Shown here: positions 13,624 through 56,858 of the stretch, in pieces
Numbering within the stretch: position 1 is the first letter of the stretch
Layout of the letters: every line of letters starts with the position of its first letter
Source of the DNA: Stellaceae bacterium
GTDB lineage: Bacteria > Pseudomonadota > Alphaproteobacteria > ATCC43930 > CGMCC-115725
Direction of reading: 5' to 3'
NCBI GenBank assembly: GCA_035623985.1
Contig: DASPSJ010000109.1
Location: 979-64,978, forward strand
Length of the DNA stretch: 64,000 nt
Program-made: the position numbers and the translations under genes
The notes under the pieces: model-generated
What the model was told of the DNA's origin: nothing
Database searches by the model: none
Seen by the model: only the letters and a program-made list of their open reading frames with translations

Positions 13624-13955
13624 TAGCGCGCTCGCTTGGCCGACGCGGCAGGCCGGCGAACGCGTTTAGGCAGGCTTTCCTCGGCGAGCTGGAGCCCCAC
13701 CTCATCGCTTCGCACATCGGCAAGTTCAGCCAGGCGTTCGGTAAGTCCGAGCACGAAAAGAACCGTGGCGTAGATGCCTAAGGATACGCCGGCATCGCCA
13801 CGCTCGACTTTGAGGAGCGTCGAGCGCGTGATGAAGGCACGCGACGCCATGATCGCAGTCGGAATGCCGCGACGGATGCGGGCGCTGCGAATGTCGCTGC
13901 CGAGTTTGGCCAAAGCCCGTTTGACCGGCAGGGGCAAGGGAGGTGTGGTGCGCAT
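13623..13955 (-). CDS. hipB: HipB-like XRE-family HTH antitoxin
   Basis: 110 aa with HTH 'IRSARIRRGIPTAIMASRAFITRSTLLKVERGD'. It lies immediately upstream of hipA on the same strand. Confidence 0.8.
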   Translation of the reverse strand: MRTTPPLPLPVKRALAKLGSDIRSARIRRGIPTAIMASRAFITRSTLLKVERGDAGVSLGIYATVLFVLGLTERLAELADVRSDEVGLQLAEESLPKRVRRPAASAKRAR

Positions 13956-15290: not shown

Positions 15291-16034
15291 TCACCGCGCC
15301 CGGCGCAGCAGGATCTCGACATAGGAAAGGTGCTCGTGCGCCGCCTGCGTCGCCTTCTCCGGGTCGCGCGTCCTGATCGCCGCCCAGATGGCTTCGTGCT
15401 GGTCGTTCAGCTTCTTGCCCGCGTCCGGCTGCTCCCACAAGCGTTCGATCGTCGCGCCGATCGACGAGCGCAACAGGTTGAAGAGGCCGCGCATCACATA
15501 GGACAGAGCCAGATTGTGCGATGCGTCGGCCACGGCGAGATGAAAGGCCGCGTCGCATTCGCCGAAACTCAGCGGGTCGTTTTCGATCGCCGCTTTCCGC
15601 AATTTTTTAATGCAATCAATTATTCTCTTGCAATCTTCCGAAGTGGCGCGCCGGGCCGCATGCGAGGCTGCGACCTGTTCGAGCGCGTGGCGCAGCTCCA
15701 GGATGTCGAAGCGCGCCTCGGGATAGTCGTCGAGCAGGCGGGCGAGCGGATCGGTCAGGGTCGGCGCATAGGCGTCGACGACTTGCATGCCGCCGCTGCG
15801 GTGCGGCTGGAGAAGGCCTTTCGTCTCGAGCTTGCGGATCGCCTCGCGCAGCGACGGCCGCGACACCGTAAACATCTGCGCCAGCTTGCGTTCCGGCGGC
15901 AAGGTGTCGCCGGGCCGCAGCGCGCCGTCGACGATGAGACGCTCGATATGCGACACGATCGAATCGGACAGGCGCAGGCGCGGGGGCGGTTCTATCCGCT
16001 CAAACAAACGCACGGCGCTTTGCTTGCTCATCAA
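15291..16034 (-). CDS. GntR/FadR-family transcriptional regulator (FCD domain)
   Basis: N-terminal wHTH 'LPPERKLAQMFTVSRPSLREAIRKLETKGLL' followed by a helical FCD-like C-terminal domain. Confidence 0.85.
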   Translation of the reverse strand: MMSKQSAVRLFERIEPPPRLRLSDSIVSHIERLIVDGALRPGDTLPPERKLAQMFTVSRPSLREAIRKLETKGLLQPHRSGGMQVVDAYAPTLTDPLARLLDDYPEARFDILELRHALEQVAASHAARRATSEDCKRIIDCIKKLRKAAIENDPLSFGECDAAFHLAVADASHNLALSYVMRGLFNLLRSSIGATIERLWEQPDAGKKLNDQHEAIWAAIRTRDPEKATQAAHEHLSYVEILLRRAR

Positions 16035-16532: not shown

Positions 16533-17033
16533 ATGAAGGACAAGCTGAGGGCTCTGTTCACCGAATACGACACCTATCATCGCCATCCGATCAATCAACT
16601 CACGCACAAGATCGCGATCCCGCTGATCTTCTTCAACGCAGTCGCCATGCTCGACTGGCTGCCGCTGGCGCCGGTCGCGGCGTTGCCCAACGGAATGCTG
16701 ACGGCGGCGGACGCCGTCCTGGTGCCGGTCGGCATCTGGTATCTCAGAGCCGACCTCAAGCTCGGCCTCCTGGCGCTCATCGGCCTGCTCGCCTGCCTGC
16801 CGATCGGCTGGGTGACGCCCGTCTGGGCGGTCATCCTGGCCGGCATCGCCGGCTGGATCATTCAACTCCTCGGCCACCTCGTCTGGGAGAAGAAGGCGCC
16901 GAACTTCACGCGCAACGGCATTCAATCCCTGGTCGGACCGATCTATTTCATCGCGCTCTACACCGGCGACTGGGCCGTGCCGCAAGCCGCCGTCGCGCCG
17001 CTTGCCGCCCGGCCGAAGGGAGGCGCGCTATGA
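16533..17033 (+). CDS. DUF962 / Mpo1-like membrane protein
   Basis: Start at ATG 16533 behind GGAGGAG. 'YHRHPINQLTHKIAIPLIFF' and 'GHLVWEKKAPNF' match the DUF962 (yeast Mpo1/YGL010w-like) pattern. The stop overlaps the next start (ATGA). Confidence 0.7.
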   Translation: MKDKLRALFTEYDTYHRHPINQLTHKIAIPLIFFNAVAMLDWLPLAPVAALPNGMLTAADAVLVPVGIWYLRADLKLGLLALIGLLACLPIGWVTPVWAVILAGIAGWIIQLLGHLVWEKKAPNFTRNGIQSLVGPIYFIALYTGDWAVPQAAVAPLAARPKGGAL

Positions 17034-18091
17034 TCGGCATCGTCGAGACGAGGCCGGCGCAGCCGGGCGCGCCGGCGTGCTGGGACGTCATCAGCGGCGG
17101 CGACGCGCCGCTCGCCGAGATCCTCGACTGGCTCGGCGGCGCCACGGGCAACATCGAACGCACGCTGCTCGAGGCGGGCGGACTCTGCCTGCGCGGCTTC
17201 GAGCGGGTCGCGACGGCGGCCGATTTCTCCGACGTCATGGCGGCGATCGCGCCGGAGCTGATGGATTACGTCGGCGGCACCTCGCCGCGCGACACGCTCC
17301 ACGGCAAGGTGATGACCGCAACCAAGCTGGTGCCGAGCTTCTCGATCCCGCTCCATCAGGAAATGTCCTACACCGACGGCTTCCCCGTCGAGATCGCCTT
17401 CTTCTGCGCGCAGCCGCCGACCGAGGGCGGCGAGACGACGACGGGCGACATGCGCGTGTTGACGCGCGCGCTCGATCCGGAGGTGCGCGAGCGTTTCGCG
17501 AGAAAGGGCGGCATCCAGCTCCGGCGCACGCTGCCGAGCCCCGACAGCCTGCGCAAGAAGCCCGGCGTGCAGAAATCCTGGCACGAGGTCTTCGGCACGG
17601 ACGACCGCGCCGCGGTCGAGCGCATCGCCGCCGCGCGCGGCTGGCGCGTCGACTGGCTCAAGGACGGCTCGGTGCAGCTCTGGCAGGAAATCCGCCCCTT
17701 CACCATCCGCCATCCGCTGACCGGCGACGAGGTCTGCTTCAATCAGGTTCATTTCTACTCGCCCCATTGCACGCTGCAATGGGCGCGCGACGACGGGCGC
17801 GCGGAGGACGTGGCGGCGATCGAGCGCGCCTTCGCCGAGGCGCCTTACATGCTCGACCGGATCTTCCACGGCGACGGCACCGAGGTCAGCCGGGAAGACG
17901 CGCTCTACGTCTACGACCTGCATCGCCGCTTCGCCGTGCCGCATCGCTGGGCGCGCGGCGACATCGTGCTGCTGGACAACGTCCTGTTCGGCCACGGCCG
18001 GCGCGCCTTCGCCGGCGAGCGCGCGATCCAGGTCGCCCTGGTCCGGCGGCGGGCGGCCGCGGCGGCGGCAACGGTGCGGGCGGCGGAGTGA
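17030..18091 (+). CDS. clavaminate-synthase-like Fe(II)/2-oxoglutarate dioxygenase (TauD/TfdA superfamily), copy 1
   Basis: 353 aa. The HxE facial-triad element is 'PLHQEMSY' and the distal His/Arg is 'LLDNVLFGHGRRAF', as in AsnO/VioC-type hydroxylases. Confidence 0.8.
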   Translation: MIGIVETRPAQPGAPACWDVISGGDAPLAEILDWLGGATGNIERTLLEAGGLCLRGFERVATAADFSDVMAAIAPELMDYVGGTSPRDTLHGKVMTATKLVPSFSIPLHQEMSYTDGFPVEIAFFCAQPPTEGGETTTGDMRVLTRALDPEVRERFARKGGIQLRRTLPSPDSLRKKPGVQKSWHEVFGTDDRAAVERIAAARGWRVDWLKDGSVQLWQEIRPFTIRHPLTGDEVCFNQVHFYSPHCTLQWARDDGRAEDVAAIERAFAEAPYMLDRIFHGDGTEVSREDALYVYDLHRRFAVPHRWARGDIVLLDNVLFGHGRRAFAGERAIQVALVRRRAAAAAATVRAAE

Positions 18092-18188
18092 CAGGGGGCT
18101 TGATCGTGCGATCGGGAGGCATCGGCAGTCGGTTCTAACGGACCTCGGGCGGAAGGCGGCTCGCCCTGCGCCCGAAGGGAGGGATGTC

Positions 18189-19250
18189 ATGATCGGAATC
18201 GTCGAGACGAAGCCGGCTGAGCCGGGGGCGCCGGCGTGCTGGGAAGTCACGAGCGGGCGCGATGCGCCGCTCGCCGAGATCGTCGACTGGCTCGGCGAGG
18301 CCGTGGGCGATCTCGAACGCACGGTCCTCGCGGCGGGCGGCGTCTGCCTGCGCGGCTTCGAGCGGGTCGCGACGGCGGCCGATTTCGCCGCGGTCATGGC
18401 GGCGATCTCCTCGGAGTTGATGGATTACGTCGGCGGCGCCTCGCCGCGCGACGTGGTCCACGGCAAGATCATGACCGCGACGAAGATGCATTCGAGCCTG
18501 TCGCTCCCGCTCCACCAGGAGATGGCCTACACCGACGATTTTCCCGCCGAGATCGCCTTCTTCTGCGCGCAGCCGCCGACCGAGGGCGGCGAGACGACGA
18601 CGGGCGACATGCGCCTCATAACGCGCGCGCTCGATCCGGCGTTGCGCGAGCGTTTCGCGAGAAAGGGCGGCGTCCAGCTCCGCCGCACGCTGCCGAGCCG
18701 CGACAGCCTGCACAAGAAGCCGGGCGTGCCCAAATCCTGGCACGAGGCCTTCGGCACGGACGACCGCGCCGCGGCCGAGCGCATCGCCGCCGCGCGCGGC
18801 TGGCGCGCCGACTGGCTCGAGGACGGCTCGATGCAGCTCTGGCAGGAGATCCGCCCCTTCACCATCCGCCATCCGCTGACCGGCGACGAGGTCTACTTCA
18901 ACCACGTCCATACCTTCTCGCCCTATTGCACGGTGAAATGGGCGCGCGACGACGGGCGCCTGGAGGAAGCGGCGGCAATCGAGCGCGCCTTCGCCGAGGC
19001 GCCGCACATGCTCGACCGCATGTTCCACGGCGACGGCAGCGAGATCAGCGCGGAAGACGCGCTCTCCCTGCGCGAGCTGCATCAGCGCTTCGCCGTGCCG
19101 CATCGCTGGATGCGCGGCGACATCCTGCTGCTCGACAACATTCTGTTCAGCCACGGCCGGCGCATTTTCGCCGGCGAGCGCTCGATCCAGGTCGCCCTGG
19201 TCAAGCAGCGGGCGGCGGCGAGGGCGGCAACGGCGTTCGCGGCGGAGTGA
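18189..19250 (+). CDS. clavaminate-synthase-like Fe(II)/2-oxoglutarate dioxygenase, copy 2 (tandem paralogue)
   Basis: 353 aa and collinear with copy 1 (roughly 80% identical by eye). Motifs 'PLHQEMAY' and 'LLDNILFSHGRRIF'. Confidence 0.8.
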   Translation: MIGIVETKPAEPGAPACWEVTSGRDAPLAEIVDWLGEAVGDLERTVLAAGGVCLRGFERVATAADFAAVMAAISSELMDYVGGASPRDVVHGKIMTATKMHSSLSLPLHQEMAYTDDFPAEIAFFCAQPPTEGGETTTGDMRLITRALDPALRERFARKGGVQLRRTLPSRDSLHKKPGVPKSWHEAFGTDDRAAAERIAAARGWRADWLEDGSMQLWQEIRPFTIRHPLTGDEVYFNHVHTFSPYCTVKWARDDGRLEEAAAIERAFAEAPHMLDRMFHGDGSEISAEDALSLRELHQRFAVPHRWMRGDILLLDNILFSHGRRIFAGERSIQVALVKQRAAARAATAFAAE

Positions 19251-19306
19251 CGACCTGCCGCCGCGGCGATGGGATTTGACGCAATGATCGTTCGGGAGGC
19301 CTGCTC

Positions 19307-20263
19307 ATGCGATTAGAAGATATCGACAGCCGCTTCTACCAGACCGCGGACGGACGGCGGGGCAAGAAGGCGATCCAGAGCACGTTCCTGCGCCGCATCC
19401 AGATCCGGCACTTCCTGCTCTTCACCGTGCTGCCGCCGATCGGCACGGCGGCCGCCCTGGCGCTGCTGTTCTGGTACCCGCTGAGCTGGCCGGTGATCGC
19501 CGTCTTCCTCGTCATGTGGTCGATCACCAGCATCGGCCAGACGGTGGGCTATCACCGGCTTTTCGCCCATCGCAGCTTCAAGGCGCATCCGGCGGTGCGC
19601 GCCGCCCTCGCGGTCGCCGGCTCGATGGCGGGACTGGGGTCGCTGATCTCCTGGACGGCGATGCATCGCCGCCATCACGAATGCTCCGACAAGCCCGGCG
19701 ACATGCATTCGCCCAATCTCCACGGCGACAGCCGGTCGCAACGGCTTCGCGGCTTCGTCCACGCCCATTTCACCTGGATGATGGGCCACGAATATCCCAA
19801 CGTGAACTACTACACGCCCGACCTGATGAGCGATTTCACCCTGCTGCGGATCAGCCGCCATTACATGAGCTGGATCGTGGCCGGCCTGGTCGTTCCGGCG
19901 GCGGCCGCCGGGCTGCTCACCGGCACCTGGATCGGCGCCATCGAGGGCTTCCTGTGGGGCGGCGCGGTGCGCATGTTCCTGGTGTCGAACGCGATGTGGA
20001 GCCTCAACTCGTTCCTGCACATCTGGGGAAGCAAGCCCTACACCTGCCGCGACAAGAGCGGCAACAGCGCCGTCCTGGCGCTGTTCTCCTGGGGCGAGGG
20101 CTGGCACCACAACCACCACGCCTTCCCGCATTCCGCCTCCTTCGCGCTCACCTGGTATCGCTTCGACCCCGGCTATTACCTGATCCTGCTGCTGCGCAAG
20201 CTGGGCCTCGTCTGGGACGTGAAATCCGTCTCCGCCGAGAGCCTCGCGCAACGGGCGGCGTGA
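19307..20263 (+). CDS. membrane acyl-CoA/acyl-lipid desaturase (Delta9-desaturase-like)
   Basis: Three His boxes ('HRLFAHRSF', 'HRRHHECSD', 'HNHHAFPHS') plus TM helices. Confidence 0.85.
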   Translation: MRLEDIDSRFYQTADGRRGKKAIQSTFLRRIQIRHFLLFTVLPPIGTAAALALLFWYPLSWPVIAVFLVMWSITSIGQTVGYHRLFAHRSFKAHPAVRAALAVAGSMAGLGSLISWTAMHRRHHECSDKPGDMHSPNLHGDSRSQRLRGFVHAHFTWMMGHEYPNVNYYTPDLMSDFTLLRISRHYMSWIVAGLVVPAAAAGLLTGTWIGAIEGFLWGGAVRMFLVSNAMWSLNSFLHIWGSKPYTCRDKSGNSAVLALFSWGEGWHHNHHAFPHSASFALTWYRFDPGYYLILLLRKLGLVWDVKSVSAESLAQRAA

Positions 20264-20321
20264 GCCGACCGCAACGTCCCTTTCCGCGTCCATCCAAGAG
20301 AGAAGAGAGAGGAGAAATCCG

Positions 20322-20609
20322 ATGAGTGTCAGTCGTTCGCCGGCCCTGACCATGGCTTCCGTCCGCGATCATTGCGTCCAGTTTCTCGCCAAGACGCTGC
20401 ATGCCGACGCCGGCACGATCGATCCCGCCGCCGATTTCGACCGTCTCGGCCTCGATTCGGTGATGGCCGTCGCGCTCGTTCTCGACCTCGAGGAGTGGAG
20501 CGGCCTCGACCTCGAGCCGTCGCTGCTCTTCGAGTATCCGACGATCAACGAGCTTGCGGCCTACGTCGTGCAGACCGTGGGCGAGCAGCCGCAGGCGAAC
20601 GTCGCCTGA
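20322..20609 (+). CDS. free-standing acyl carrier protein
   Basis: 95 aa with the phosphopantetheine attachment motif 'DRLGLDSVMAVAL'. Confidence 0.85.
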   Translation: MSVSRSPALTMASVRDHCVQFLAKTLHADAGTIDPAADFDRLGLDSVMAVALVLDLEEWSGLDLEPSLLFEYPTINELAAYVVQTVGEQPQANVA

Positions 20610-20628
20610 GCCGCCGAGGGAGGGAAAG

Positions 20629-21567
20629 ATGAGCGAAGTCACCGCGCTGCGGCGCCGCGAGGAGCACAAATACGGCGGGTCGCCGGAAGGCATCAAGCAT
20701 CACTACGACATCGGGAACGAGTTCTGGCGCCTGATGCTCGGCCCGTCCTACACCTATTCCGCCGCGCTGTTCACCAATCCCAACGACGATCTCGAGACCG
20801 CGCAGCTCCGCAAGATCAACTGGCACCTGACGAGCGCCAACGTCCAGGACGCCGCCTCGGTCCTCGAGGTCGGCTGCGGCTGGGGCACCATCCTCACCCG
20901 GCTCAACCGGCTGGCGCACGTCCGCCGCGTCGTCGGCCTCACGCTGAGCCAGGCGCAGGCCGACCTTCTCAACGGCTTCGGCCTCGAGAAGGTCGAGGTG
21001 CGGGTCGAGAACTGGGCGAATTACGAGCCGAAAGAGACCTTCGATTCGATCATCTCGATCGGCGCCTTCGAGCATTTCGCCAAGCCCGACGAGACGCAGG
21101 AGGAGAAGATCTCGGTCTACCGCGATTTCTTCGAGCGCTGCCATCGCTGGCTCACCCCGAAGGGCCGGCTGTCGCTGCAAACCATCGCCTACGGCACGAT
21201 GCAGCGGCAGGACGCGAACGAGTTCATGATCACCGAGATCTATCCCGAATCGGATCTGCCCTATCTCGCCGACATCATCGCCGCGGTCGACGGCCTGTTC
21301 GAAGTGGTGGCGGTGCGCAACGACCGTTTCGACTACGCGCGCAGCTATGACGAGTGGCTGAAGAACCTGCGCGGCCGGCGCGACGAGGCCGTCCGCCTGG
21401 TGGGCGAAGAGCAGGTACGGCGTTTCGAGCGCTTCTACAAGCTCGGCTCCATCGGCTTCCGCATGGGCAAGATCTGGCTGTTGCGCTTCTGCCTGCGGCC
21501 GATCACGCACGACTGGCGCGCCACGGGCGAGCCGCTGAAGCTCGACGGCAGCGTGTCGTTCGCCTAG
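20629..21567 (+). CDS. cyclopropane-fatty-acyl-phospholipid-synthase-like SAM methyltransferase
   Basis: Start at ATG 20629 behind GAGGGAGGGA. Motifs 'IKHHYDIGNEFWRLMLGPSYTYSAALF', 'VLEVGCGWGT' and 'ISIGAFEHF' indicate the CFA/mycolic-acid methyltransferase family. Confidence 0.85.
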   Translation: MSEVTALRRREEHKYGGSPEGIKHHYDIGNEFWRLMLGPSYTYSAALFTNPNDDLETAQLRKINWHLTSANVQDAASVLEVGCGWGTILTRLNRLAHVRRVVGLTLSQAQADLLNGFGLEKVEVRVENWANYEPKETFDSIISIGAFEHFAKPDETQEEKISVYRDFFERCHRWLTPKGRLSLQTIAYGTMQRQDANEFMITEIYPESDLPYLADIIAAVDGLFEVVAVRNDRFDYARSYDEWLKNLRGRRDEAVRLVGEEQVRRFERFYKLGSIGFRMGKIWLLRFCLRPITHDWRATGEPLKLDGSVSFA

Positions 21568-22035
21568 CGCCGCCGCCGCACATGCCGAGACGGCGCGCGA
21601 TCGCGGTCGCCGTCTCCGCCGTCGCTCAGGGAGAGAGCCGCTCCGCGGTTCTCTCCCGTCCGCTCCCCGAGGGCACTTGCTTATGAGAATCACCACGGAG
21701 ACACGGAGGACACGGAGAAGCGGCCAACCCGGCCGGCCGCTTTGCGGCCGGCCTCGGAGGGTTCGATCGCGAAGCGATCGAATGGGTTGGCGGCGCGCTT
21801 CGCCCGGCTACGCGAAGCCGAAGCTTCGCTTCGGCGAAGGCAGGCGCGCCCAACAACGCTTCTCCGTGCCCTCCCTGCCTCCGCGGTCAATCTTTTCCGC
21901 CGGCGTCTGGGCGGCATATGCGATTGCCCGGCCGCCGCTCGCGGCGGCGGAGAGCGCCGGGGCAACGCGAAACGACGCGGCGTCGCGATCGGCGGCGGAA
22001 GCAAGAAGACCGGGTTCGGCGAGGGAGACTTCGAG

Positions 22036-23325
22036 ATGCTGAAAGCCGATTTGCGCCAGAACAGCGCCGCACAGCCGCCCGGGAGCACCGGTCGGAAGCC
22101 GTTGCGCTTCAATCCGGTGAGCGAGGAGTTCCATCAGGATCCCTATCCCGTCTATCAGTGGCTGCAACGCGATGAGCCGCGCTATCGGCTGCTCGGAAGC
22201 TGGGTCCTCACGCGCTTCGCCGACGTCGTCGAGGTCCTGTCGAATCGCGCCTACAGCTCCCGCCTGTTCGAGGACATCATCTGGAAGAACAAGCCCGATT
22301 TCGGGATTCCCGAGCCCGATCCGATACAATTCTTCATCCGCAAGGCGATCGTCTTCACCGAGAATCCCGACCATGCGCGGCTGCGGCGGCTGACCAACGA
22401 CAGCTTCACGCAGCGCCAGATCGACGCCGAGCGGCCGCTGATCGCGGCGGTGGTGGACGCGGCGATCGAGCGGGCCGCCCGGAGCGGCGTCGCCGACGTG
22501 GTCGAGGCGATCGCCGAGCCCGTGCCGCTGCGCGTCATGGCGGGGCGGCTCGGCCTCGAGGTCGACGCCCATCCCGGCTTCGCGCGCCGGATCAACGACG
22601 CAAGGCAGCTCCTCGATCCCGGGCTGATGACGCGGGAGGATTACGAGCGCACGCACGCCTCCATGACGGAGCTGATGGAGATCATGCGCAAGCAGGCCGG
22701 CGGCGGCTGCCCCTTCCACGGCGTCGGCAAGCACAACCTCATGGAAGGCCTGGAAGCGGCGCGCTGGGGCGAGGACCGTCTCGACCACGAGGAGATCCTG
22801 CTGCTGTCGATCATGACCTTCGTGGCCGGGACCGAGACGACGAAGGCGTTGATCGGCAACAGCATCTATCTCCTGCTCAGCCATCCCGACCAGCTTGCGC
22901 TGCTGCGCCGCGACCGCAGCCTCTTGCGCAACGCCGTCGAGGAGGTCATGCGCTATGAATCGCCGCTGCAACAGACCAAGCGGGTCGCGATCGAGGACAC
23001 CAGGCTCGGCGATGCGTCGATCCGCAAGGGCGAGCAGCTCTTGCTGTGCCTCGGCGCCGCCAATCGCGATCCCGCGCAATTCGCCGACCCGCAGCGCTTC
23101 GACATCGGCCGCGCCAACGCCAACGAGCATCTCGCCTTCGGCTACGGCATGCGCAATTGCCTGGGCGGCGGCCTCGCCGCGACGATCGCCGAGACGGTGA
23201 TCGAACGCCTTCTCCTCGACCGCACGGACGTGACGCTCGCCGGCGACGGGCTCCATTGGCAGACCAAGAGCCGCATCCTGCGCAGCCTCCAGCGATTGCC
23301 GGTCCGGTTGGGCGCGGCGGCATAG
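22036..23325 (+). CDS. cytochrome P450
   Basis: Start at ATG 22036 behind GAGGGAGA. I-helix 'FVAGTETT', 'EEVMRYESP' (ExxR) and the heme-thiolate loop 'FGYGMRNCLGGGLA'. Confidence 0.9.
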   Translation: MLKADLRQNSAAQPPGSTGRKPLRFNPVSEEFHQDPYPVYQWLQRDEPRYRLLGSWVLTRFADVVEVLSNRAYSSRLFEDIIWKNKPDFGIPEPDPIQFFIRKAIVFTENPDHARLRRLTNDSFTQRQIDAERPLIAAVVDAAIERAARSGVADVVEAIAEPVPLRVMAGRLGLEVDAHPGFARRINDARQLLDPGLMTREDYERTHASMTELMEIMRKQAGGGCPFHGVGKHNLMEGLEAARWGEDRLDHEEILLLSIMTFVAGTETTKALIGNSIYLLLSHPDQLALLRRDRSLLRNAVEEVMRYESPLQQTKRVAIEDTRLGDASIRKGEQLLLCLGAANRDPAQFADPQRFDIGRANANEHLAFGYGMRNCLGGGLAATIAETVIERLLLDRTDVTLAGDGLHWQTKSRILRSLQRLPVRLGAAA

Positions 23326-23335
23326 GGCGGGCGCC

Positions 23336-24130
23336 ATGGGCGATGCCGAGGTTACGCCGCTGGCCGGCTGGCTGCGCCTGCCGCCGGTCCAAGCCGCGAC
23401 GCGCGCGCTTCTGCTGTGCTTTCCGCATGCCGGCGGCAACGCCCTGTCCTTTAACGGCTGGGCGAAGGACCTGCCGGACTGGCTGGGGCTGGTGCGGGCG
23501 CTGCTGCCGGGGCGCGACGACCTCGCCGCGCTCGCGCCGGTGGAGCAGGCGGAAGAGATGGCGCCGCGATACCTCGCCGCGCTCGCCCAGCTCGGCGATT
23601 ATCCGCTCATCTTCTACGGCCACAGCCTCGGCGCCATCCTCGCTTTCGACCTCGCCCGCGCCATGCGCCGGCGCGGCCTGCGCCCGCCGCTTGCGCTCTG
23701 CGTCTCCGGCCGGCGCGCGCCGCCGCTGCCGCTCTCGCACGCCGCGCTCTCCACGCTCGCGGATGCGGCGCTGATCGCGGCGATGCGCGAGATGGGCGGA
23801 CCCATGATCGGCATCTTCGACAATCCGCGCTGGCGCGACCGCTTGTTCCCGTTGATGCGCGCCGATCTCGCCGTTTCCGACCACTACCGCTACGCCGCGG
23901 AGGCGCCGCTCGGCTGTCCGATCATCGCCTTCCACGGCGCCGAGGATTCGCTGGTCAAGGCCGCCGAGGTCATGGCCTGGCGCGCCGAGACGATCGGCGG
24001 CTTCCGCTTCCTGCCGGTCGAGGGCCGCCATTTCTTCGAGGCGCCGACGCGGCGGCGCATCATCGCGACGATCGTCGCCGAGGCCGAGGCGCGCCTGGCC
24101 GACCGCGCCGGCCGGGCGGAGGCGCGATGA
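23336..24130 (+). CDS. type II thioesterase (alpha/beta hydrolase)
   Basis: 'LLCFPHAGGNA' and the nucleophile elbow 'GHSLGA' are typical of PKS/NRPS-associated TEII. The stop overlaps the next start. Confidence 0.85.
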   Translation: MGDAEVTPLAGWLRLPPVQAATRALLLCFPHAGGNALSFNGWAKDLPDWLGLVRALLPGRDDLAALAPVEQAEEMAPRYLAALAQLGDYPLIFYGHSLGAILAFDLARAMRRRGLRPPLALCVSGRRAPPLPLSHAALSTLADAALIAAMREMGGPMIGIFDNPRWRDRLFPLMRADLAVSDHYRYAAEAPLGCPIIAFHGAEDSLVKAAEVMAWRAETIGGFRFLPVEGRHFFEAPTRRRIIATIVAEAEARLADRAGRAEAR

Positions 24131-25923
24131 GCGCCGCCGGCGCACCGCGGCCCGAGGAGCGATTGCTGCCCGAGGTGCTGGCGGGCTGGGCGGCGCGCGC
24201 GCCGGACAAGCCCGCCCTCGCCTTGCTCGACGAGCGCGGCGTCGAGATAGCGGCCCTCGGCTATCGCCCGCTTTACGAGCGCGCGCTGGCTCTTGCCGGG
24301 CGGCTCGCCGCCGCAACCGCGCGCGGCGACCGCGTTCTCATCGGCACCGAATCGCCGCTCGACTTCCTGATCGGCTTTTTCGCCTGCCTCATCGGCGGCC
24401 GCGTCGCCGTGCCGGTCATCCTGCCGCGGCGCAACAAGATGCGCGAGGCGACGCGCTCGATCTTCCAGGACAGCCGGCCGCGCTGCATCCTGACCGACGG
24501 GGAAGCGATCGAGCCGTTCCGCGCGCTCGCCGCCACGGCGCCCGAGGGCGAGCGGGCGACATGCCTCGCGATCGACGGCATCGCGGCGAGCGCGCCCGCC
24601 GGTCCCGCCTTCGCCGGCCCGCCGGTCGGCCCGGCGGACCTCGCCTTCCTGCAATACACTTCGGGCTCGACCTCCTCGCCGAAGGGCGTCATGGCGAGCC
24701 ACGGCAATCTCCGCGCCAATCTGGAGATGATCGCGGCGCGCTGGGGCAGCGGGCCGCACTCCCGGTTCGTGAGCTGGATCCCGCTGTTTCACGACATGGG
24801 ACTCATCCTGGTGGCGCTCCAGGCGATCCATGTCGGCGGCCTCTGCGTGTTCATGCGCCCGGCGCTGTTCTCGCAGCGCCCGCTGCTCTGGCTCAAGGCG
24901 ATCTCCGACTACCGCGCCGACATCGCCGGAGCGCCCGACTTCGCCTACGATCTCTGCCTGCGCCATTTCTCGGCGGAGAAGGCGTCGGGATTGGATCTGT
25001 CCTGCTGGCGCCTCGCCTTCAACGCCGCCGAGCCGGTGCGCGCCGACACCATCCGCCGCTTCTCCGCCGCCTTCGCGCCCTACGGCTTCGACGGCGCCGC
25101 GACCTATCCCTGCTACGGGCTTGCCGAGGCGACCGTCTTCGTCTCCGGCGGCAGGCCGGGCAAGGCGTTGCGCATGGCCGCGCTCGACCGCCGCGCGCTC
25201 GAAAGCGACCGCGTCCGTCCCGCGGTCCCCGGCGGCGAGGTCCAGGAGCTTGTCGCCTGCGGCCACGCGGTCGAGGGCGAGGAGATCCGGATCGTCGATC
25301 CGGAGACCCGCCTGCCGCAGCCGGAGCGGGCGCTCGGCGAGATCTGGGTTGCCGGCGCGAACGTCGCGCAGGGCTATTGGGAGAAGCCTGAGGCCAGCGA
25401 GGAGACCTTCCGCGCCCGCCTTGCCGACGGGTCGCCGGGCTCATTCCTGCGCACCGGCGACCTGGGCTTCCTCGACGGCGGCGAGGTGTTCATCGCCGGG
25501 CGGCGCAAGGACATGCTGATCCTGCGCGGCCGCAACTTCTACCCGCAGGACATCGAGAAGCTCGCCGAAAACGCCCATCCGGCGCTGCGGCCGACCTGCT
25601 CGGCCGCGGTGAGCGTCGGCGAGGGCGCCGAGGCGGCGCTCGTCATCATCGCCGAGGTCGAGCGGAGCTGGCGCCAAAAGGCCGATGGCGGCGAGGTGAC
25701 GGCGGCGGTGCGCGCCGCCATCGTCGCGGAGTTCGATCTCCACGTCCGCGAGGTCGTGCTGATCCGCGTCGGCACGATCCCCAAGACCACCAGCGGCAAG
25801 ATCCGCCGCGCGGAAGCGTGCCATCGCCATCTCGCGGGGACGCTGGAACGCCTCGACCGGGAAACGCCCGTTGCCGCGGCGCGGAGGGCGATGCCGGACG
25901 GCGGCATCGCTCTCCAGGACTGA
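24127..25923 (+). CDS. fatty acyl-AMP ligase (FAAL)
   Basis: 598 aa with 'LAFLQYTSGSTSSPKGVMASHGNL', 'YGLAEAT', 'LRTGDLGF' and 'PKTTSGKIRR'. It is a stand-alone adenylating enzyme with no fused carrier domain. Confidence 0.85.
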   Translation: MSAAGAPRPEERLLPEVLAGWAARAPDKPALALLDERGVEIAALGYRPLYERALALAGRLAAATARGDRVLIGTESPLDFLIGFFACLIGGRVAVPVILPRRNKMREATRSIFQDSRPRCILTDGEAIEPFRALAATAPEGERATCLAIDGIAASAPAGPAFAGPPVGPADLAFLQYTSGSTSSPKGVMASHGNLRANLEMIAARWGSGPHSRFVSWIPLFHDMGLILVALQAIHVGGLCVFMRPALFSQRPLLWLKAISDYRADIAGAPDFAYDLCLRHFSAEKASGLDLSCWRLAFNAAEPVRADTIRRFSAAFAPYGFDGAATYPCYGLAEATVFVSGGRPGKALRMAALDRRALESDRVRPAVPGGEVQELVACGHAVEGEEIRIVDPETRLPQPERALGEIWVAGANVAQGYWEKPEASEETFRARLADGSPGSFLRTGDLGFLDGGEVFIAGRRKDMLILRGRNFYPQDIEKLAENAHPALRPTCSAAVSVGEGAEAALVIIAEVERSWRQKADGGEVTAAVRAAIVAEFDLHVREVVLIRVGTIPKTTSGKIRRAEACHRHLAGTLERLDRETPVAAARRAMPDGGIALQD

Positions 25924-26076
25924 AAGCCCCTGGCCGCCGCCGGCCCCCCGGCGCCGCTCCTTGCCGCGGCGACTCGCGGGGATCTCGCGCGTTCCGGAGA
26001 AATGCGCCATAATGGTTCAAGCGAAGGTGGCGAGTCGACACAGTGCGCCTCCCGCATAAAGGGAAGGAACCCGCCC

Positions 26077-27573
26077 ATGGCGCTGCTCTCACCGTCATTG
26101 CCGGACGAACAAACGGCCTTCGACCGGGCCCGGGTCGCGGCCGACCTGCGCCGCCTGCTCGGGGCGCAGGCGGTCATCGCCAGCGAGGAGGGGATGAAGC
26201 CCTATGAATGCGACGGGCTCACCGCCTACCGCCAGCTTCCCGGCGTCGTCGCCATCCCGACCAGCAGCGAGGAGCTGCGCGCCGTCATCGGCTATTGCCA
26301 CGAGCGGCGCATCCCCATCGTGCCGCGCGGCGCCGGCACGAGCCTGTCGGGCGGCGCGCTGCCGCACTCCCAGGGCGTCCTGCTCAATCTCGCCCGGCTC
26401 AACCGCATCCTGTCGATCGACCCGCTGAGCCGCACCGCGCGGGTGCAGCCCGGGGTGCGCAACCTGCAGATCTCCGAAGCCGCCGCCAAGTTCGGCCTCT
26501 TCTACGCGCCCGATCCGTCCTCGCAGATCGCCTGCACCATCGGCGGCAACATCGCCGAGAATTCGGGCGGGCTGCATTGCATCAAATACGGCCTCACCGT
26601 GCACAACATCCTGAAAATCGAGGTCGTGCTGAGCAACGGCGAGCTGGTCACCATCGGCAGCGACGCGCTCGACACGCCGGGCTTCGACCTCCTGGCGCTC
26701 ATGACCGGCTCGGAAGGGCTGCTCGGCGTCGTCGCCGAGGCCACGGTGAAGCTGCTGGCCAAGCCGCGCTGCGTGCGCCTCGTCCTCGCCTGCTTCGACG
26801 ACATCGCCAAGGCCGGGGACGCCGTCGGCAACGTCATCGCGCGCGGCATCATTCCGGCCGGCTTCGAGATGATGGACAACCCGACGATCCGCACCGTCGA
26901 AGCCTTCAGCTCGTCGGGCTACGACGTCGAGGCGGCGGCGGTGCTGCTCTGCGAGCTTGACGGCTCGGTCGAGGACGTGGAGGAGAATTTCGGCAAGGTC
27001 CAGGCGATCCTGCGGGAGAGCGGCGCGACCTCGCTGCGCGTCGCGCGCGACGAGGCGGAGCGCCAGCGCTTCTGGGCCGGGCGCAAGGGCGCGCTGCCCG
27101 CGGCCGGACGCATCTCGCCCGACTATTACTGCATGGACGGGACGATCCCGCGCCGGCACATCGCCGTGGTGCTGGCCCGCATCGCCGAGCTGTCGCGCCA
27201 ATACGGGCTGCGCGTCACCAACGTCTTCCACGCCGGCGACGGCAATCTCCACCCGCTCGTCCTCTATGACGCGAGCAAGCCCAAGGAGCTGCGCATCGCC
27301 GAGGAGCTTGGCGGCAAGATCCTCGAGCTGTGCGTCGAAATGGGCGGCACGGTGACCGGCGAGCACGGCGTCGGCGCGGAGAAGCTCAACCAGATGTGCG
27401 TCCAGTTCGGCGCCGACGAGCTCGATCAGTTCCACGCCGTCAAGCGCGCCTTCGACCCCGCCGGCATCTTCAACCCGGGCAAGGGCGTGCCGACGCTGCA
27501 TCGCTGCGCCGAGTTCGGCGCGATGCACGTCCACAAGGGCGAGCTGCGCTTCCCGGATCTGCCGCGCTTCTAG
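26077..27573 (+). CDS. glcD: glycolate oxidase subunit GlcD (FAD-linked oxidase)
   Basis: Start at ATG 26077. Motifs 'IVPRGAGTSLSGGALP', 'HAGDGNLHP' and 'GTVTGEHGVGAEK'. It is followed by glcE and glcF. Confidence 0.9.
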   Translation: MALLSPSLPDEQTAFDRARVAADLRRLLGAQAVIASEEGMKPYECDGLTAYRQLPGVVAIPTSSEELRAVIGYCHERRIPIVPRGAGTSLSGGALPHSQGVLLNLARLNRILSIDPLSRTARVQPGVRNLQISEAAAKFGLFYAPDPSSQIACTIGGNIAENSGGLHCIKYGLTVHNILKIEVVLSNGELVTIGSDALDTPGFDLLALMTGSEGLLGVVAEATVKLLAKPRCVRLVLACFDDIAKAGDAVGNVIARGIIPAGFEMMDNPTIRTVEAFSSSGYDVEAAAVLLCELDGSVEDVEENFGKVQAILRESGATSLRVARDEAERQRFWAGRKGALPAAGRISPDYYCMDGTIPRRHIAVVLARIAELSRQYGLRVTNVFHAGDGNLHPLVLYDASKPKELRIAEELGGKILELCVEMGGTVTGEHGVGAEKLNQMCVQFGADELDQFHAVKRAFDPAGIFNPGKGVPTLHRCAEFGAMHVHKGELRFPDLPRF

Positions 27574-27581
27574 GCGACCGC

Positions 27582-28664
27582 ATGCCCGCCATCGCCCTCA
27601 CCGAGGCGCCCGACGCCCGCAACGAGTTCCGCGAGATCATCCGCGACGCCGCGGCGCGCGGCGCGCCGCTGCGCCTCCAGGGCAGCAACAGCAAGGCGTT
27701 TCTCGGCCGCGCCACCGCGGGAACCGTCCTCGACACGCGCGGCCACGCCGGCGTCATCGACTATCATCCCTCGGAGCTCGTCATCACCGCGCGCGCCGGC
27801 ACCCCGCTCGCCGAGGTCGAGGCAACCCTCGCCGAGAAGGGGCAGATGCTGGCCTTCGAGCCGCCGCATTTCGGCGACGCGGCGACGCTGGGCGGCACGC
27901 TCGCCTGCGCGCTGTCCGGCCCGCGCCGGCCCTATGCCGGGGCGGCGCGCGATTTCGTGCTCGGCGTCACGCTGATCGACGGGCGCGGGCGGCTGCTGCG
28001 GTTCGGCGGCCAGGTCATCAAGAACGTCGCGGGATACGACGTCTCGCGCCTCGTCATCGGCGCGATGGGAACGCTGGGGCTGATGACCGAGATCTCGCTC
28101 AACGTGCTGCCGCGCCCGGCGGCGGAGGCGACGATCCGGCTCGAGCGCGACACGGCCGAGGCGATCCGCACGGTCAATGAATGGATGCGCACCCCCTCGC
28201 CGATATCGGCGGTCTGCTTCGGCGACGGGCAGCTCCATGTCCGCTTCTCCGGCTCGGCGGCCGACATGCGCGCCGCCGCCGCCAAGCTCGGCGGCGCCGA
28301 GATCGAGGACGCCGGGCGTTTCTGGAGCGACCTGCGCGAGCACCGCCTCGCGTTCTTCCGCGAGGCGCCGGCGCTGTGGCGGCTCTCCGTGCCGCCGACG
28401 ACGCCGCCGCTGCCGCTGCCGGGGCGCTGGCTGATCGAGTGGAACGGCGGCCTGCGCTGGCTGGTCTCCGCCGCCTCGACCGAGGAGATCCGCGCCGCCG
28501 CCGATGCCGCGGGCGGCCATGCCACGCTGTTCCGGGCCGAGAGGCCCTGCAACGACGTCTTCCATCCGCTGGCGCCCGGCATCGAGGCGCTGCACCACGC
28601 CCTCAAGGCGGCTTTCGACCCGCACCGGATCCTCAATCCCGGCCGCCAATACGAGACGATCTGA
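27582..28664 (+). CDS. glcE: glycolate oxidase FAD-binding subunit GlcE
   Basis: Start at ATG 27582 (MPAIALTE...). Motifs 'LRLQGSNSKAFLG', 'VIKNVAGYDVSRL' and 'FDPHRILNPG'. Confidence 0.85.
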   Translation: MPAIALTEAPDARNEFREIIRDAAARGAPLRLQGSNSKAFLGRATAGTVLDTRGHAGVIDYHPSELVITARAGTPLAEVEATLAEKGQMLAFEPPHFGDAATLGGTLACALSGPRRPYAGAARDFVLGVTLIDGRGRLLRFGGQVIKNVAGYDVSRLVIGAMGTLGLMTEISLNVLPRPAAEATIRLERDTAEAIRTVNEWMRTPSPISAVCFGDGQLHVRFSGSAADMRAAAAKLGGAEIEDAGRFWSDLREHRLAFFREAPALWRLSVPPTTPPLPLPGRWLIEWNGGLRWLVSAASTEEIRAAADAAGGHATLFRAERPCNDVFHPLAPGIEALHHALKAAFDPHRILNPGRQYETI

Positions 28665-28675
28665 AGGAGAGCGAC

Positions 28676-29917
28676 TTGGACGGCGCGATCGAGCCGCAGA
28701 TCGAGACCGAGGCGATCGAGGAGGCGAAAGCCATCCTCGCCAAATGCGTCCATTGCGGCTTTTGCGCCGCCACCTGCCCGACCTATCAGCTCACCGGCGA
28801 CGAGCTCGAGGGACCGCGCGGCCGGATCTACCTGATCAAGGAAATGCTGGAGGGCAAGCCCGTCTCGACCGAGACGCAAACGCATCTCGACCGCTGCCTC
28901 ACCTGCCTCGGCTGCGAGACGACCTGTCCCTCGGGCGTGCGCTACGGCCACCTCGTCGAGGTCGGCCGCACCGTCCTCGAGCGGCGCGTGCCGCGCACCG
29001 CCGGCGACCGGCTGTTGCGCGCGGCGCTGACCGCGGTCCTCCCCCATCGCCGCCGCTTCGCCGCCCTGCTGCGCCTGGGGCAGGCGGTGCGCGGCGTGCT
29101 GCCGGCGCGCCTCCAGCGCGCCGTGCCGCCCAGGGCCCGGGCCGGCGCCTGGCCGCCGCCGCGGCACAAGCGGCGGGTCGTCCTCATGCAAGGCTGCGTC
29201 CAGCCCTCGCTCGCGCCCGACATCAACGCGGCCAGCGCGCGGGTGCTCGATCGCCTCGGCATCTCGGCGGTCACGGTCGACGATCGCTGCTGCGGCGCGC
29301 TCGGCCATCACACCGGAGCGCCCGAGCAGGCGCGCCGGCTCATGAAGCACAACATCGACGCCTGGAGCGCGGCCATCGCCGAGGGATGCGAGGCGATCGG
29401 CGTCACCGCCACCGGCTGCGCCGCCTTCATCAAGGACTATGCCTATCTGCTGCGCGACGACCGCGCCTATGCCGACAAGGCCAAGGCGCTGATGCCGCGG
29501 CTCAGGGACCTGGCCGAGATCCTGCGCGGCGAGGCGCTGCGCGACCTGCCCGGCGCCGGCAGCGGCCGCATCGCCTGTCACGTCCCCTGCTCGCTCCAGC
29601 ACGGCGAGAAGCTGCCGGGCGTCGTCGAGAGCATCCTGAGGGAGCGCGGCTTCACGCTCACGGAAGTGCCGGAGGCGCATCTGTGCTGCGGCTCCGCCGG
29701 CAGCTATTCGCTGCGCGAGCCGGAGGCATCCGAGCAGCTCCGGCAGCGCAAGCTCGCGGCGCTGCAATCGGATTCGCCCGAGCTGATCGCGACCGCCAAT
29801 ATCGGCTGCCTGATGCATCTGGCGGCCGAGGCCGAGCGGCCCGTGCTGCACTGGATCGAGCTCTTCGCCGCGAGCCTCGAAGGCGAGCCGGGCCAAGCCC
29901 GCGCGGCAGCGCGGTAA
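28676..29917 (+). CDS. glcF: glycolate oxidase iron-sulfur subunit GlcF
   Basis: TTG start at 28676 behind GAAGGAGA. Two ferredoxin-type clusters ('CVHCGFCAATCPTY', 'CLTCLGCETTCPSGV') plus CCG-type Cys-rich repeats. Confidence 0.85.
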   Translation: MDGAIEPQIETEAIEEAKAILAKCVHCGFCAATCPTYQLTGDELEGPRGRIYLIKEMLEGKPVSTETQTHLDRCLTCLGCETTCPSGVRYGHLVEVGRTVLERRVPRTAGDRLLRAALTAVLPHRRRFAALLRLGQAVRGVLPARLQRAVPPRARAGAWPPPRHKRRVVLMQGCVQPSLAPDINAASARVLDRLGISAVTVDDRCCGALGHHTGAPEQARRLMKHNIDAWSAAIAEGCEAIGVTATGCAAFIKDYAYLLRDDRAYADKAKALMPRLRDLAEILRGEALRDLPGAGSGRIACHVPCSLQHGEKLPGVVESILRERGFTLTEVPEAHLCCGSAGSYSLREPEASEQLRQRKLAALQSDSPELIATANIGCLMHLAAEAERPVLHWIELFAASLEGEPGQARAAAR

Positions 29918-30858: not shown

Positions 30859-30888
30859 CGCCAACCCGGCCGCAGGGCAGAGGGAGGA

Positions 30889-31965: not shown

Positions 31966-32009
31966 CCGGGCCGCCCGCGAAAGGACCACCGCGAAAGGAG
32001 CACCGCGCC

Positions 32010-37281: not shown

Positions 37282-37707
37282 CTATTGCAGGACGGCGATG
37301 GTGGCGAGCGCGGCGGCGACGAGGCGCTCGCGCTCGCCCTTCGCGGCAAAGACCTCCGAACGGGCAACGACCATGGACCTGCCGGACTTGAGGACGTAGC
37401 CGCGGCCGATGAGCTTGTCGCCGACCGCCGGGGCCAGCAGGTTTATCTTGTATTCGGCCGTGACCACGTCGCCCGCGACCGAGCCCGCCGCCCAGGCGCA
37501 AGCGCTGTCGGCGATGCAGCCGATGACCGCGCCATGCGCGTAGCCGTGATGCTGTGTCAACTCGCGGCGCATCGCCACGTGCAGCTCGGCATAGCCGTCC
37601 TCGCATTTGATGATCTCGGGCCTGAGGAAGGCGGCAAAAGGCGTCATGTCGAGCAGCGTCTTGAGATTCTCCACCGTGATGCCGTCCTTGAAGACCTTTA
37701 CCGACAT
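37282..37707 (-). CDS. PaaI-family hotdog thioesterase
   Basis: 141 aa with 'HHGYAHGAVIGCIADSACAWAA' and 'VVARSEVF' motifs typical of PaaI/YdiI thioesterases. Confidence 0.8.
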   Translation of the reverse strand: MSVKVFKDGITVENLKTLLDMTPFAAFLRPEIIKCEDGYAELHVAMRRELTQHHGYAHGAVIGCIADSACAWAAGSVAGDVVTAEYKINLLAPAVGDKLIGRGYVLKSGRSMVVARSEVFAAKGERERLVAAALATIAVLQ

Positions 37708-50884: not shown

Positions 50885-50971
50885 CGCCGTCGTCCGGCAA
50901 GCAGTGCGCCCAAGTCAAGCCAAAAAACAATGCGTAAGAAGAAGCACTAAGCGAACGTCGTCGGCGAGCGC

Positions 50972-51562: not shown

Positions 51563-51570
51563 TGTGCCCC

Positions 51571-56836: not shown

Positions 56837-56858
56837 AAGTTGAGTTGAGACGGGGCAT

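Follow-up and report, generated by a model that had tools for sequence, protein, structure and literature searches.

What does a bacterium make with a stand-alone fatty acyl-AMP ligase (FAAL), a dedicated acyl carrier protein (ACP), and a set of chain-tailoring enzymes when no polyketide synthase (PKS) or nonribosomal peptide synthetase (NRPS) accompanies them? The question is raised by a 64,000-nucleotide stretch of contig DASPSJ010000109.1 from a Stellaceae bacterium (assembly GCA_035623985.1), which we refer to in its whole length as the window. An earlier note, made from the sequence of the window, had described nine such genes at positions 16533 to 25923. The reading that we favor, and to which we give about an even chance of being right, is that these genes represent a cluster family without PKS or NRPS that makes a tailored free fatty acid, which is alpha-oxidized and then exported. 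A further proposal, which we regard as possible but on balance doubtful, is that a TauD-type dioxygenase and a SmaX-like DUF6817 protein form a previously unrecognized system for fatty acid alpha-oxidation. This system would trim the tailored acid by one carbon before export, and its products, odd-chain lipids secreted as signals or antibiotics, would form a new class.

The gene cluster and its relatives

Gene calls and coordinates in the window rest on a listing of open reading frames (ORFs) and on Pfam and NCBIfam scans. All nine genes of the earlier note were present on the plus strand at the coordinates it gave, and motif inspection found the catalytic motifs unbroken in every one. They encode, in order, an Mpo1-like (DUF962) membrane protein (16533-17033); two TauD/TfdA Fe(II)/2-oxoglutarate (2OG) dioxygenases, copy a (17030-18091; PF02668, triad HQE109/HGR322) and its tandem paralogue copy b (18189-19250), both with the HQE...HGR pattern; a membrane FA_desaturase with three His boxes (19307-20263; PF00487); a free-standing ACP (20322-20609; PP-binding, 61 bits, with a GLDSV phosphopantetheine site); a short-form S-adenosylmethionine (SAM) methyltransferase of 312 amino acids (20629-21567; PF02353, 182 bits; VLEVGCGWG78 and GAFEH145) from the family of cyclopropane mycolic acid synthases (CMAS) and cyclopropane fatty acid synthases (CFAS); a cytochrome P450 (22036-23325; PF00067, heme and I-helix motifs, FGYGMRNCLG); a type II (alpha/beta-hydrolase) thioesterase (23336-24130; PF00975, 110 bits; GHSLG and GRHFF); and the FAAL (24127-25923; AMP-binding/DIP2-like, YTSGST), assigned from Pfam, NCBIfam, and PDB matches. 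Spacing ranged from a 4-nucleotide overlap up to 97 nucleotides, with the sole exception of a 468-nucleotide noncoding gap between the methyltransferase and P450 genes (21568-22035). This gap is rich in GC palindromes such as GGCCGGCCGCTTTGCGGCCGGCC; it was kept in near-identical contigs and is missing from the closest genome (locus L005). In agreement with the earlier note, no ketosynthase (KS), condensation, or amino acid adenylation domain was found in the window ORFs of at least 450 amino acids or in the genes of 300 to 500 amino acids supported by third-codon-position GC content, although short unscanned ORFs might hold small stand-alone domains.

An alignment of the TauD clade served to scan 185,579 genomes, one for each species, and all window proteins were then compared with the fetched loci by tblastn. 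Neighbor families were found by clustering all genes around these loci. The TauD clade was rare and patchy, occurring in about 20 of the species genomes. The block of desaturase, ACP, methyltransferase, P450, thioesterase, and FAAL genes recurred elsewhere in identical order with a TauD gene at most 10 kb away. Among Alphaproteobacteria, it was carried by a Xanthobacteraceae metagenome-assembled genome (MAG; 66 to 88% identity), six Stappia genomes, and plasmid pCSC3H3 of Thalassospira marina; beyond this class, it was carried by several Eremiobacterota MAGs, Burkholderia ubonensis, Variovorax paradoxus, and Bordetella genomosp. 13. The block was present in 17 of about 19 informative loci with a TauD of at least 44% identity, and the copies in Thalassospira and Pseudonocardia were plasmid borne. 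Thus, the genes form a unit that has spread across phyla, partly on plasmids, and the co-conservation that the earlier note had left to be checked holds, in the same order, across Alphaproteobacteria, Betaproteobacteria, and Eremiobacterota. The gene order kept across phyla points to horizontal transfer of an accessory unit. Proteins identical to those of the window were found on ENA soil metagenome contigs.

The cluster does not end at 25923, where the earlier note had closed it, since conserved partners lie at 29917-31965 and 37282-37707. Three further families were conserved with the block: a PaaI-type hotdog thioesterase directly 3' of the FAAL, an AEC-family transporter, and a DUF6817 protein directly 3' of TauD. 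The canonical order is therefore Des-ACP-CMAS-P450-TE-FAAL-PaaI-AEC-TauD-DUF6817 (Des, desaturase; TE, thioesterase). The window has all three out of this order, with the transporter (Mem_trans, PF03547) at 29917-30858 and DUF6817 (PF20680) at 30889-31965 on the plus strand and the PaaI protein (4HBT) at 37282-37707 on the minus strand. Transporter orthologues with 40 to 72% identity stood beside TauD in L003, L005, L016-L019, and L088, and PaaI orthologues with 49 to 55% identity directly followed the FAAL in L003, L005, L006, L017, L019, L086, and L088; the Thalassospira orthologue is annotated as PaaI family. A second hotdog protein (38220-38663, plus strand; 4HBT/4HBT_3) is shared with the closest relative, L005, where a copy with 67% identity is found upstream of Mpo1. 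In the window lineage, the TauD gene was shifted to the front of the operon and duplicated (L005 and all other genomes have a single copy), Mpo1 was added, glcDEF was placed between the FAAL and transporter genes, and genes for LarA, LarC, and a LarE-like protein were placed 3' of DUF6817. The glcF stop and the transporter start overlap as TAATG, the Lar genes are spaced by 0 and -8 nucleotides, and the 17 co-directional genes from 16533 to 35301 look like one operon.

Several relatives carry additions of their own. In MAG GCA_963795695.1 (L088, 12224-13774), genes for nitrile hydratase alpha, beta, and accessory proteins and for an MFS transporter come right after DUF6817 in an otherwise canonical cluster. 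In an Eremiobacterota MAG (L003, 12263-16378), DUF6817 is followed by an MBOAT protein, a class II aminoacyl-tRNA synthetase-like amino acid:carrier protein ligase, and a 75-amino-acid carrier protein, a D-alanylation-like set that may attach an amino acid in that lineage. The block, with or without its P450 gene, was also seen without TauD: a Pseudonocardia alni plasmid carries it, and plasmids of Burkholderia gladioli BSR3 carry two forms, of which one includes a small PKS. On the latter plasmids, bgla_1p and bgla_4p (L087 and L093), the further Des-ACP-methyltransferase-FAAL modules comprise one with two desaturases, a 700-amino-acid PKS, a second ACP, a P450, and LuxR regulators and another with an amidohydrolase, a PaaI protein, and insertion sequence elements at its flanks. 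The window methyltransferase is 71% identical to those of Burkholderia singularis and Burkholderia sp. TSV86 (L002 and L020) but only about 50% identical to those of other Betaproteobacteria, and the genes neighboring it are 40 to 57% identical; this hints at mosaic horizontal transfer inside the cluster.

Proposed loading and tailoring of the acyl chain

By its sequence relationships, the ligase is a fatty acyl-AMP ligase and not an acyl-CoA synthetase. Its best PDB relatives were all FAALs (7r7e, 3kxw, FadD32/23/28, and 3pbk; E = 1e-140 to 1e-65), whereas acyl-CoA synthetases matched at about 1e-21; the top NCBIfam matches were likewise FAAL models, with scores under their equivalog cutoffs. 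The ligase would adenylate a fatty acid and load it onto the dedicated ACP. The desaturase was 36 to 46% identical to desaturases of FAAL-ACP cassettes and, judged by its context, is probably of the JamB/polyyne-cassette type; it would introduce a double bond into the ACP-bound chain. By tblastn, no second desaturase was found in the 64-kb window, and two rubredoxin queries returned nothing significant there (best E = 0.015 over 27 residues).

The best PDB relatives of the methyltransferase were PcaA, CmaA1/2, and MmaA2 (about 1e-31 to PcaA and CmaA). The protein aligned with the catalytic region (residues ~100 to 376) of the phospholipid cyclopropane fatty acid synthases, which have roughly 400 amino acids, and its length is like that of the mycolic acid enzymes of roughly 290 amino acids. 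This short-form family gave 2,644 matches at E ≤ 1e-40, including cyanobacteria, myxobacteria, actinobacteria, and acidobacteria. In the loci compared, its gene always directly followed the ACP gene, and in another genome an ACP-CMAS fusion protein was encoded beside a FAAL. We propose that the enzyme methylates or cyclopropanates an ACP-bound alkene, adding a SAM-derived carbon to give a cyclopropane, a methyl or methylene branch, or a vinyl group.

Two architectures of the family, variants 1 and 3, kept the P450, which is proposed to oxygenate the chain by hydroxylation or epoxidation. The PF00975 thioesterase was co-conserved and is proposed to free the acid from the ACP, with the PaaI hotdog protein proofreading or assisting. 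From its pairing with the other genes, the AEC transporter would export the product. From loading to release, these steps draw on homology together with precedent. The cay and pgn polyynes are made without a PKS by a FAAL/ACP/desaturase/thioesterase route that was reconstituted experimentally (PMC9828172), and for FshF, a CFAS-like enzyme, activity on an unsaturated acyl chain tethered to an ACP has been demonstrated (PMC13548996). The FAAL/ACP-templated reading fits the cluster, and cay/pgn and FshF are direct experimental precedents for the sequence of FAAL-ACP loading, on-carrier desaturation and methylation, and thioesterase release that the earlier note had sketched.

Proposed hydroxylation and cleavage next to the carboxylate

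The two TauD copies are 79% identical to each other and belong to a small clade (39 clusters among 5.8 billion proteins). The nearest solved relatives were the sulfoquinovose dioxygenase SqoD and the uncharacterized Arabidopsis protein At3g21360 (PDB 1y0z), while clavaminate synthase (CAS) and amino acid hydroxylases gave weak matches in PDB sequence and profile searches. The Gln that binds the sulfonate in SqoD is an invariant Tyr in the TauD clade.

Members of the clade appear almost always to be encoded beside an enzyme acting on alpha-hydroxy acids. At least 10 loci paired TauD with a DUF6817 gene, which was its direct neighbor in L003, L013-L019, and L088 and lay in the same locus in L005; in the window the two are 11.6 kb apart in the same operon. 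In B. singularis and Burkholderia sp. TSV86, the neighbors of TauD were a D-2-hydroxyacid dehydrogenase (2-Hacid_dh), an aminotransferase, and a GNAT protein; in the orthologous locus of Myxococcus fulvus, the neighbors were GNATs, an aminotransferase, and, at the contig end, a truncated FAD oxidase gene. GlcD-like FAD oxidases stood beside TauD-clade genes in L016, L018, L021, L022, and L027. Such pairs came from Ramlibacter, Variovorax, Micromonospora, and one MAG each of the Pyrinomonadaceae and the Gammaproteobacteria, and the Pyrinomonadaceae locus also encodes an aminotransferase. Because these neighbors all act on alpha-hydroxy acids, TauD is probably a hydroxylase of the carbon next to a carboxylate, and the simplest reading is that it hydroxylates the carbon alpha to the carboxylate of the released acid. 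On the same reading, the resulting 2-hydroxy acid would be cleaved in variant 1, that of the window, and oxidized and transaminated in variant 2. The earlier note had read these CAS-like enzymes as on-carrier oxygenases and had left room for an amino-acid-derived moiety; they are probably neither extra on-carrier oxygenases nor amino acid hydroxylases, given that the clade adjoins alpha-hydroxy-acid enzymes.

For the cleavage step, the relevant precedent is SmaX, described in 2025 as an atypical mono-Fe(II) HD-domain oxygenase that acts after the Fe/2OG hydroxylase SmaO and cleaves the alpha-hydroxy-carboxylate of beta-hydroxy-aspartate to give aminomalonate. By HHpred, SmaX was linked only to DUF6817 and HD_4; its Fe ligands are H39, H63, and N143, its substrate residues are H31, T68, R104, and Q147, and 52 NRPS clusters were reported with a SmaX homologue beside a TauD-like oxygenase. 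The window DUF6817 protein (79.3 bits to PF20680; cutoff, 25.2) combines an N-terminal atypical HD fold with a C-terminal TPR-like domain. Positions H31, H39, H63, T68, R104, N143, and Q147 of SmaX correspond, with the same spacing, to H46, H54, H78, N83, R120, D166, and Q170 of the window protein. Six of these seven positions were invariant, and N83 was nearly so, among 26 aligned homologues from bacteria and plants. The HD dyad reads HS, as in SmaX, and has no Asp.

The AlphaFold (AF2) model of DUF6817 had a predicted local distance difference test score of 91 over the full length and 84 over the N-domain. When the full-length model was searched with Foldseek, TPR matches dominated, and the HD fold became visible once the N-domain was modeled alone; a sequence and profile search against the PDB likewise matched the C-terminal TPR-like part alone. 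For the N-domain, ranks 1 to 26 of the PDB matches were all HD-superfamily proteins (RelH, Mesh1, Rel/SpoT-type HD_4 hydrolases, PDE4, PhnZ, and TmpB), with modest scores (probability up to 1.0; best E = 8e-3; template modeling scores of 0.4 to 0.5); PhnZ and TmpB themselves were only weak matches (ranks 20 to 50, E about 1 to 4). A hidden Markov model of the N-domain also found ORFs of ~200 residues directly 3' of TauD-like genes in actinobacterial NRPS loci (E = 1e-16 to 1e-18), and these SmaX-type ORFs carry H, H, H, T, R, N, and Q at the aligned columns. From the shared residues, the HD fold, and the NRPS-locus ORFs, it follows that the TauD/DUF6817 pair of the cluster is homologous to the hydroxylase/cleavage pair of peptide pathways, to which knowledge of this enzyme pair has so far been confined. 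We propose that DUF6817 carries out an Fe-dependent oxidative cleavage of an alpha-hydroxy-carboxylate. Plants have homologues of both partners, DUF6817 proteins in Asteraceae (31 to 35% identity) and At3g21360 for the TauD clade, and such a pair might act jointly there.

Around this pair, the window lineage has assembled further genes. The Mpo1 gene, which among the fetched loci was seen only in the close relatives L001/L004 and in L005, overlaps TauD copy a by 4 nucleotides and, on the evidence of the sequence, is translationally coupled to it. Its product has four His and matches PF06127 with 53 bits (cutoff, 24). Yeast Mpo1 is an Fe(II) dioxygenase that converts a 2-hydroxy fatty acid to an acid one carbon shorter, with release of CO2 (PMC10398889). 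In the window, the TauD-clade enzyme would thus hydroxylate the carbon next to the carboxylate, and DUF6817, here together with the Mpo1-like dioxygenase, would convert the 2-hydroxy acid to CO2 and an acid one carbon shorter, which amounts to alpha-oxidation; gene pairing and active-site conservation suggest both steps. The glcD-glcE-glcF genes for a glycolate/2-hydroxyacid oxidase (26077-29917, plus strand; Pfam) lie inside the operon in the window lineage only, and their membership in the cluster is uncertain. The LarA-like 2-hydroxyacid racemase, LarC, and LarE-like PP-loop protein (32010-35301, plus strand; Lar_N/LarA_C, Ni_insertion, and a weak PP-loop match) had no match in the loci compared by tblastn. 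The LarA homologue may be a racemase for the 2-hydroxy acid of the cluster; LarB was not seen among the genes scanned in the window. The second TauD, Mpo1, glcDEF, and the LarA system are all predicted 2-hydroxy-acid enzymes and would elaborate the same module.

Several observations weigh against alpha-oxidation of a fatty acid by this pair. The substrate of TauD is read solely from neighbor genes, and more distant TauD relatives lie in NRPS clusters, where the equivalent enzyme pair acts on aspartate. Two of the seven SmaX positions are conservatively changed in DUF6817 (T to N and N to D), the protein has the extra TPR-like domain, and the residue match was made from published residue numbers and the alignment of SmaX-like ORFs rather than from the SmaX sequence. 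The glcDEF genes may be mere housekeeping genes caught in the operon. Finally, in a third architecture (L086, which is pCSC3H3 of T. marina, and Stappia L006-L010 and L023), the transporter and DUF6817 are missing from the fetched flanks. In L086 (19700-24603), the genes after TauD encode a class II aldolase/adducin protein, a "Pnap_2097 family" protein, and an AMP-binding protein about 1000 amino acids long, with a phosphopantetheinyl transferase gene about 5 kb upstream; the Stappia loci have unannotated ORFs of similar size after TauD.

Competing explanations and known systems

If TauD and DUF6817 instead acted on aspartate or another small carboxylate, they would make aminomalonate by way of beta-hydroxy-aspartate, and its joining to the acyl chain would yield a lipoamino acid, which corresponds to the undetected amino-acid-derived moiety of the earlier note. 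We consider this unlikely, even though the conversion of hydroxy-aspartate to aminomalonate is the sole characterized reaction of the SmaX type, SmaX-like ORFs stand beside TauD-like genes in NRPS loci, relatives at 28 to 36% identity are annotated as SyrP-like, and GNAT genes adjoin TauD in the B. singularis/Myxococcus variant. No condensation enzyme, N-acyltransferase, alpha-oxoamine synthase, or KS belongs to the conserved core, a thioesterase and an exporter are conserved, and the gene translationally coupled to TauD in the window is that of Mpo1, which is known to act on a 2-hydroxy long-chain fatty acid. For the variant with dehydrogenase, aminotransferase, and GNAT, a simpler explanation is that the alpha-carbon of the acid itself comes to bear an N-acetyl-amino group. 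Somewhat less likely again is an alkyne or polyyne-type cluster, in which the desaturase would be a JamB/TtuB-like acetylenase and the product a further decorated alkynyl fatty acid. Here the FAAL, desaturase, and ACP have homologues in the known cassettes; identity is 36 to 39% to a Streptomyces sp. Mg1 locus of the polyyne type and 42 to 46% to the desaturases of the B. gladioli plasmid FAAL-ACP cassettes, which also have the methyltransferase; cay has a thioesterase and a P450 too, and Mullins et al. placed B. ubonensis in a Burkholderia "alkyne cassette" clade. Polyynes, however, need a triad of desaturases and a redox partner, and the always-adjacent CFAS-like methyltransferase requires an alkene. 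Membership among the polyyne clusters proper was rejected on the single desaturase and the lack of a significant rubredoxin match in the window. Mullins et al. also mention an "alkyne locus" for Burkholderia pseudomallei, a species that was not among the TauD or CMAS matches of our genome scans.

Membrane lipid enzymes classically include CFAS and desaturases, and glcDEF, LarA, and the flanking leucine and aspartate genes belong to primary metabolism, so the operon might be one for membrane lipid remodeling or for fatty acid salvage or catabolism that neighbors glycolate and lactate genes by chance. This we hold to be improbable: the cluster has a dedicated ACP, a FAAL, a thioesterase, and an exporter but no acyltransferase back to lipids, the TauD clade is rare and patchy in distribution (about 20 of 185,579 species genomes), copies in Thalassospira and Pseudonocardia lie on plasmids, and the cross-phylum gene order suits a horizontally transferred accessory unit. 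An isonitrile lipid cassette like ScoB-E or Rv0097-0100 combines an ACP, a FAAL, a hotdog thioesterase, and a TauD-family isonitrile synthase, and these four protein types are conserved side by side in our family as well (FAAL-PaaI-...-TauD, plus ACP), with nitrile hydratase directly downstream in one relative. Nevertheless, this explanation is very improbable. Neither single-sequence searches of the PDB with TauD nor those with the family profile (E ≤ 1) returned a chain named as ScoE or isonitrile synthase, the best matches being SqoD and At3g21360; the hotdog protein is of the PaaI type, with no Rv0098- or FcoT-named chain among its PDB matches; and no NRPS (ScoA) was found in the window. 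We accordingly dropped ScoE-type isonitrile synthases as an identity for the CAS-like enzymes. A tailored free fatty acid, alpha-oxidized and exported, is the reading that we retain.

Outside the operon, a GntR/FCD-family regulator (15291-16034, minus strand; GntR plus FCD) is divergent from it, and L001 and L004, both close relatives, have the same neighbor. This regulator may control the cluster or, as a GlcC-like protein, glcDEF. Conceivably, the tailoring genes arrived by insertion between a glcC-like regulator gene and glcDEF. A UDP-glycosyltransferase gene (35672-37174, minus strand; UDPGT/EryCIII-like_C) adjoins the PaaI gene; its product had no match in the loci compared by tblastn, and its link to the cluster is uncertain. 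The window-wide scan placed leucine and aspartate pathway enzymes, transporters, and regulators in the flanks of the cluster. About 2.5 kb upstream are a HipA-type toxin kinase (Couple_hipA/HipA_C; 410 amino acids) and, after it, a 110-amino-acid partner (12391-13955, minus strand). A low-GC island at 50000-58500 (58% GC versus about 70%) encodes a 1346-amino-acid protein with an N-terminal HTH_3 as its sole domain (52559-56599, minus strand) and a Fic/DOC protein (56859-58421), and it may be a mobile or defense island. An Rfam search of the window found no RNA family, and a promoter and terminator scan gave 0 promoters and terminators at chance level.

We found no product assigned to this gene set in the literature; no comparison with MIBiG was made. 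The earlier note knew of no characterized pathway with this gene set; this holds as far as an assigned product is concerned, but for the logic it goes too far, since polyyne pathways use the same one. The proposed logic of the family is that of known thiotemplated fatty acid pathways, and what would be new is the combination of the methyltransferase with the TauD/SmaX-like pair and the three architectures. It represents a cross-phylum family of PKS/NRPS-independent fatty acid clusters with at least three architectures, and it has cultured carriers: B. ubonensis LMG 20358, V. paradoxus ISL-3, Bordetella genomosp. 13, Stappia species, T. marina CSC3H3, and M. fulvus. It also offers a testable function for three poorly understood families, the At3g21360-like TauD clade, DUF6817 outside peptide pathways, and bacterial DUF962/Mpo1, and it would extend two recent enzymological findings, CFAS-like chemistry on acyl-ACP and SmaX-type C-C cleavage, to a much wider range of bacteria. 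If our reading of the TauD/DUF6817 pair is true, a lipid would for the first time be known as a substrate of a mono-iron, C-C-cleaving oxygenase of the HD type, and a function would be suggested for the plant homologues, both At3g21360 and the plant DUF6817 proteins. If alpha-hydroxylation is true, the sister variants would be natural routes from a fatty acid to chain-shortened acids or 2-amino fatty acids.

Among characterized systems, the polyyne clusters (cay, pgn, ccn, and col) come close to this logic. In them, as is proposed for the window, a stand-alone FAAL loads a dedicated ACP, membrane desaturase activity is exerted on the ACP-bound chain, and an alpha/beta-hydrolase thioesterase, which polyyne release requires, frees the acid, with P450 tailoring as in cay; homology of the FAAL and desaturase extends to the polyyne-type locus mentioned above. 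However, polyyne clusters have three desaturases and a rubredoxin or ferritin donor, whereas the window has one desaturase and no rubredoxin was found there. Relative to the described polyyne core, the window adds the CFAS-like methyltransferase, the PaaI thioesterase, the TauD/DUF6817 pair, and the AEC transporter. The JamABC/TtuABC terminal-alkyne cassettes likewise encode a FAAL, a membrane desaturase, and an ACP together, and more than 80 operons of this type have been reported across bacteria, most of them uncharacterized. JamABC feeds a PKS/NRPS in jamaicamide biosynthesis, whereas none was found in the window. The FshA/FshE/FshD/FshF module of fischerazole biosynthesis in Fischerella (PMC13548996) has a P450 in common with the window cluster, but fsh runs on into PKS/NRPS modules and halogenases, while the window chain would be freed by the thioesterase.

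For the second half of the pathway, the closest parallels are SmaO-SmaX, PhnY-PhnZ, and TmpA-TmpB, in which an Fe/2OG hydroxylase works with an HD-domain oxygenase; the adjacency of the TauD-family and DUF6817 genes resembles that of SmaO and SmaX. These systems belong to pathways for ribosomally synthesized and posttranslationally modified peptides, nonribosomal peptides, and phosphonates, whereas the pair described here sits in a fatty acid cluster, and the window DUF6817 protein is about 150 residues longer than SmaX, with its TPR-like C-terminal domain and two substituted positions. The proposed net chemistry, from a 2-hydroxy fatty acid to the n-1 acid and CO2, equals the reaction of yeast Mpo1. 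An Fe/2OG enzyme that makes a 2-hydroxy intermediate has a parallel in phytanoyl-CoA hydroxylase (PhyH) of peroxisomal alpha-oxidation. Unlike in that route, the hydroxylase here belongs to the TauD/TfdA family, a SmaX-like second enzyme accompanies it in most members, and the operon would be biosynthetic rather than catabolic.

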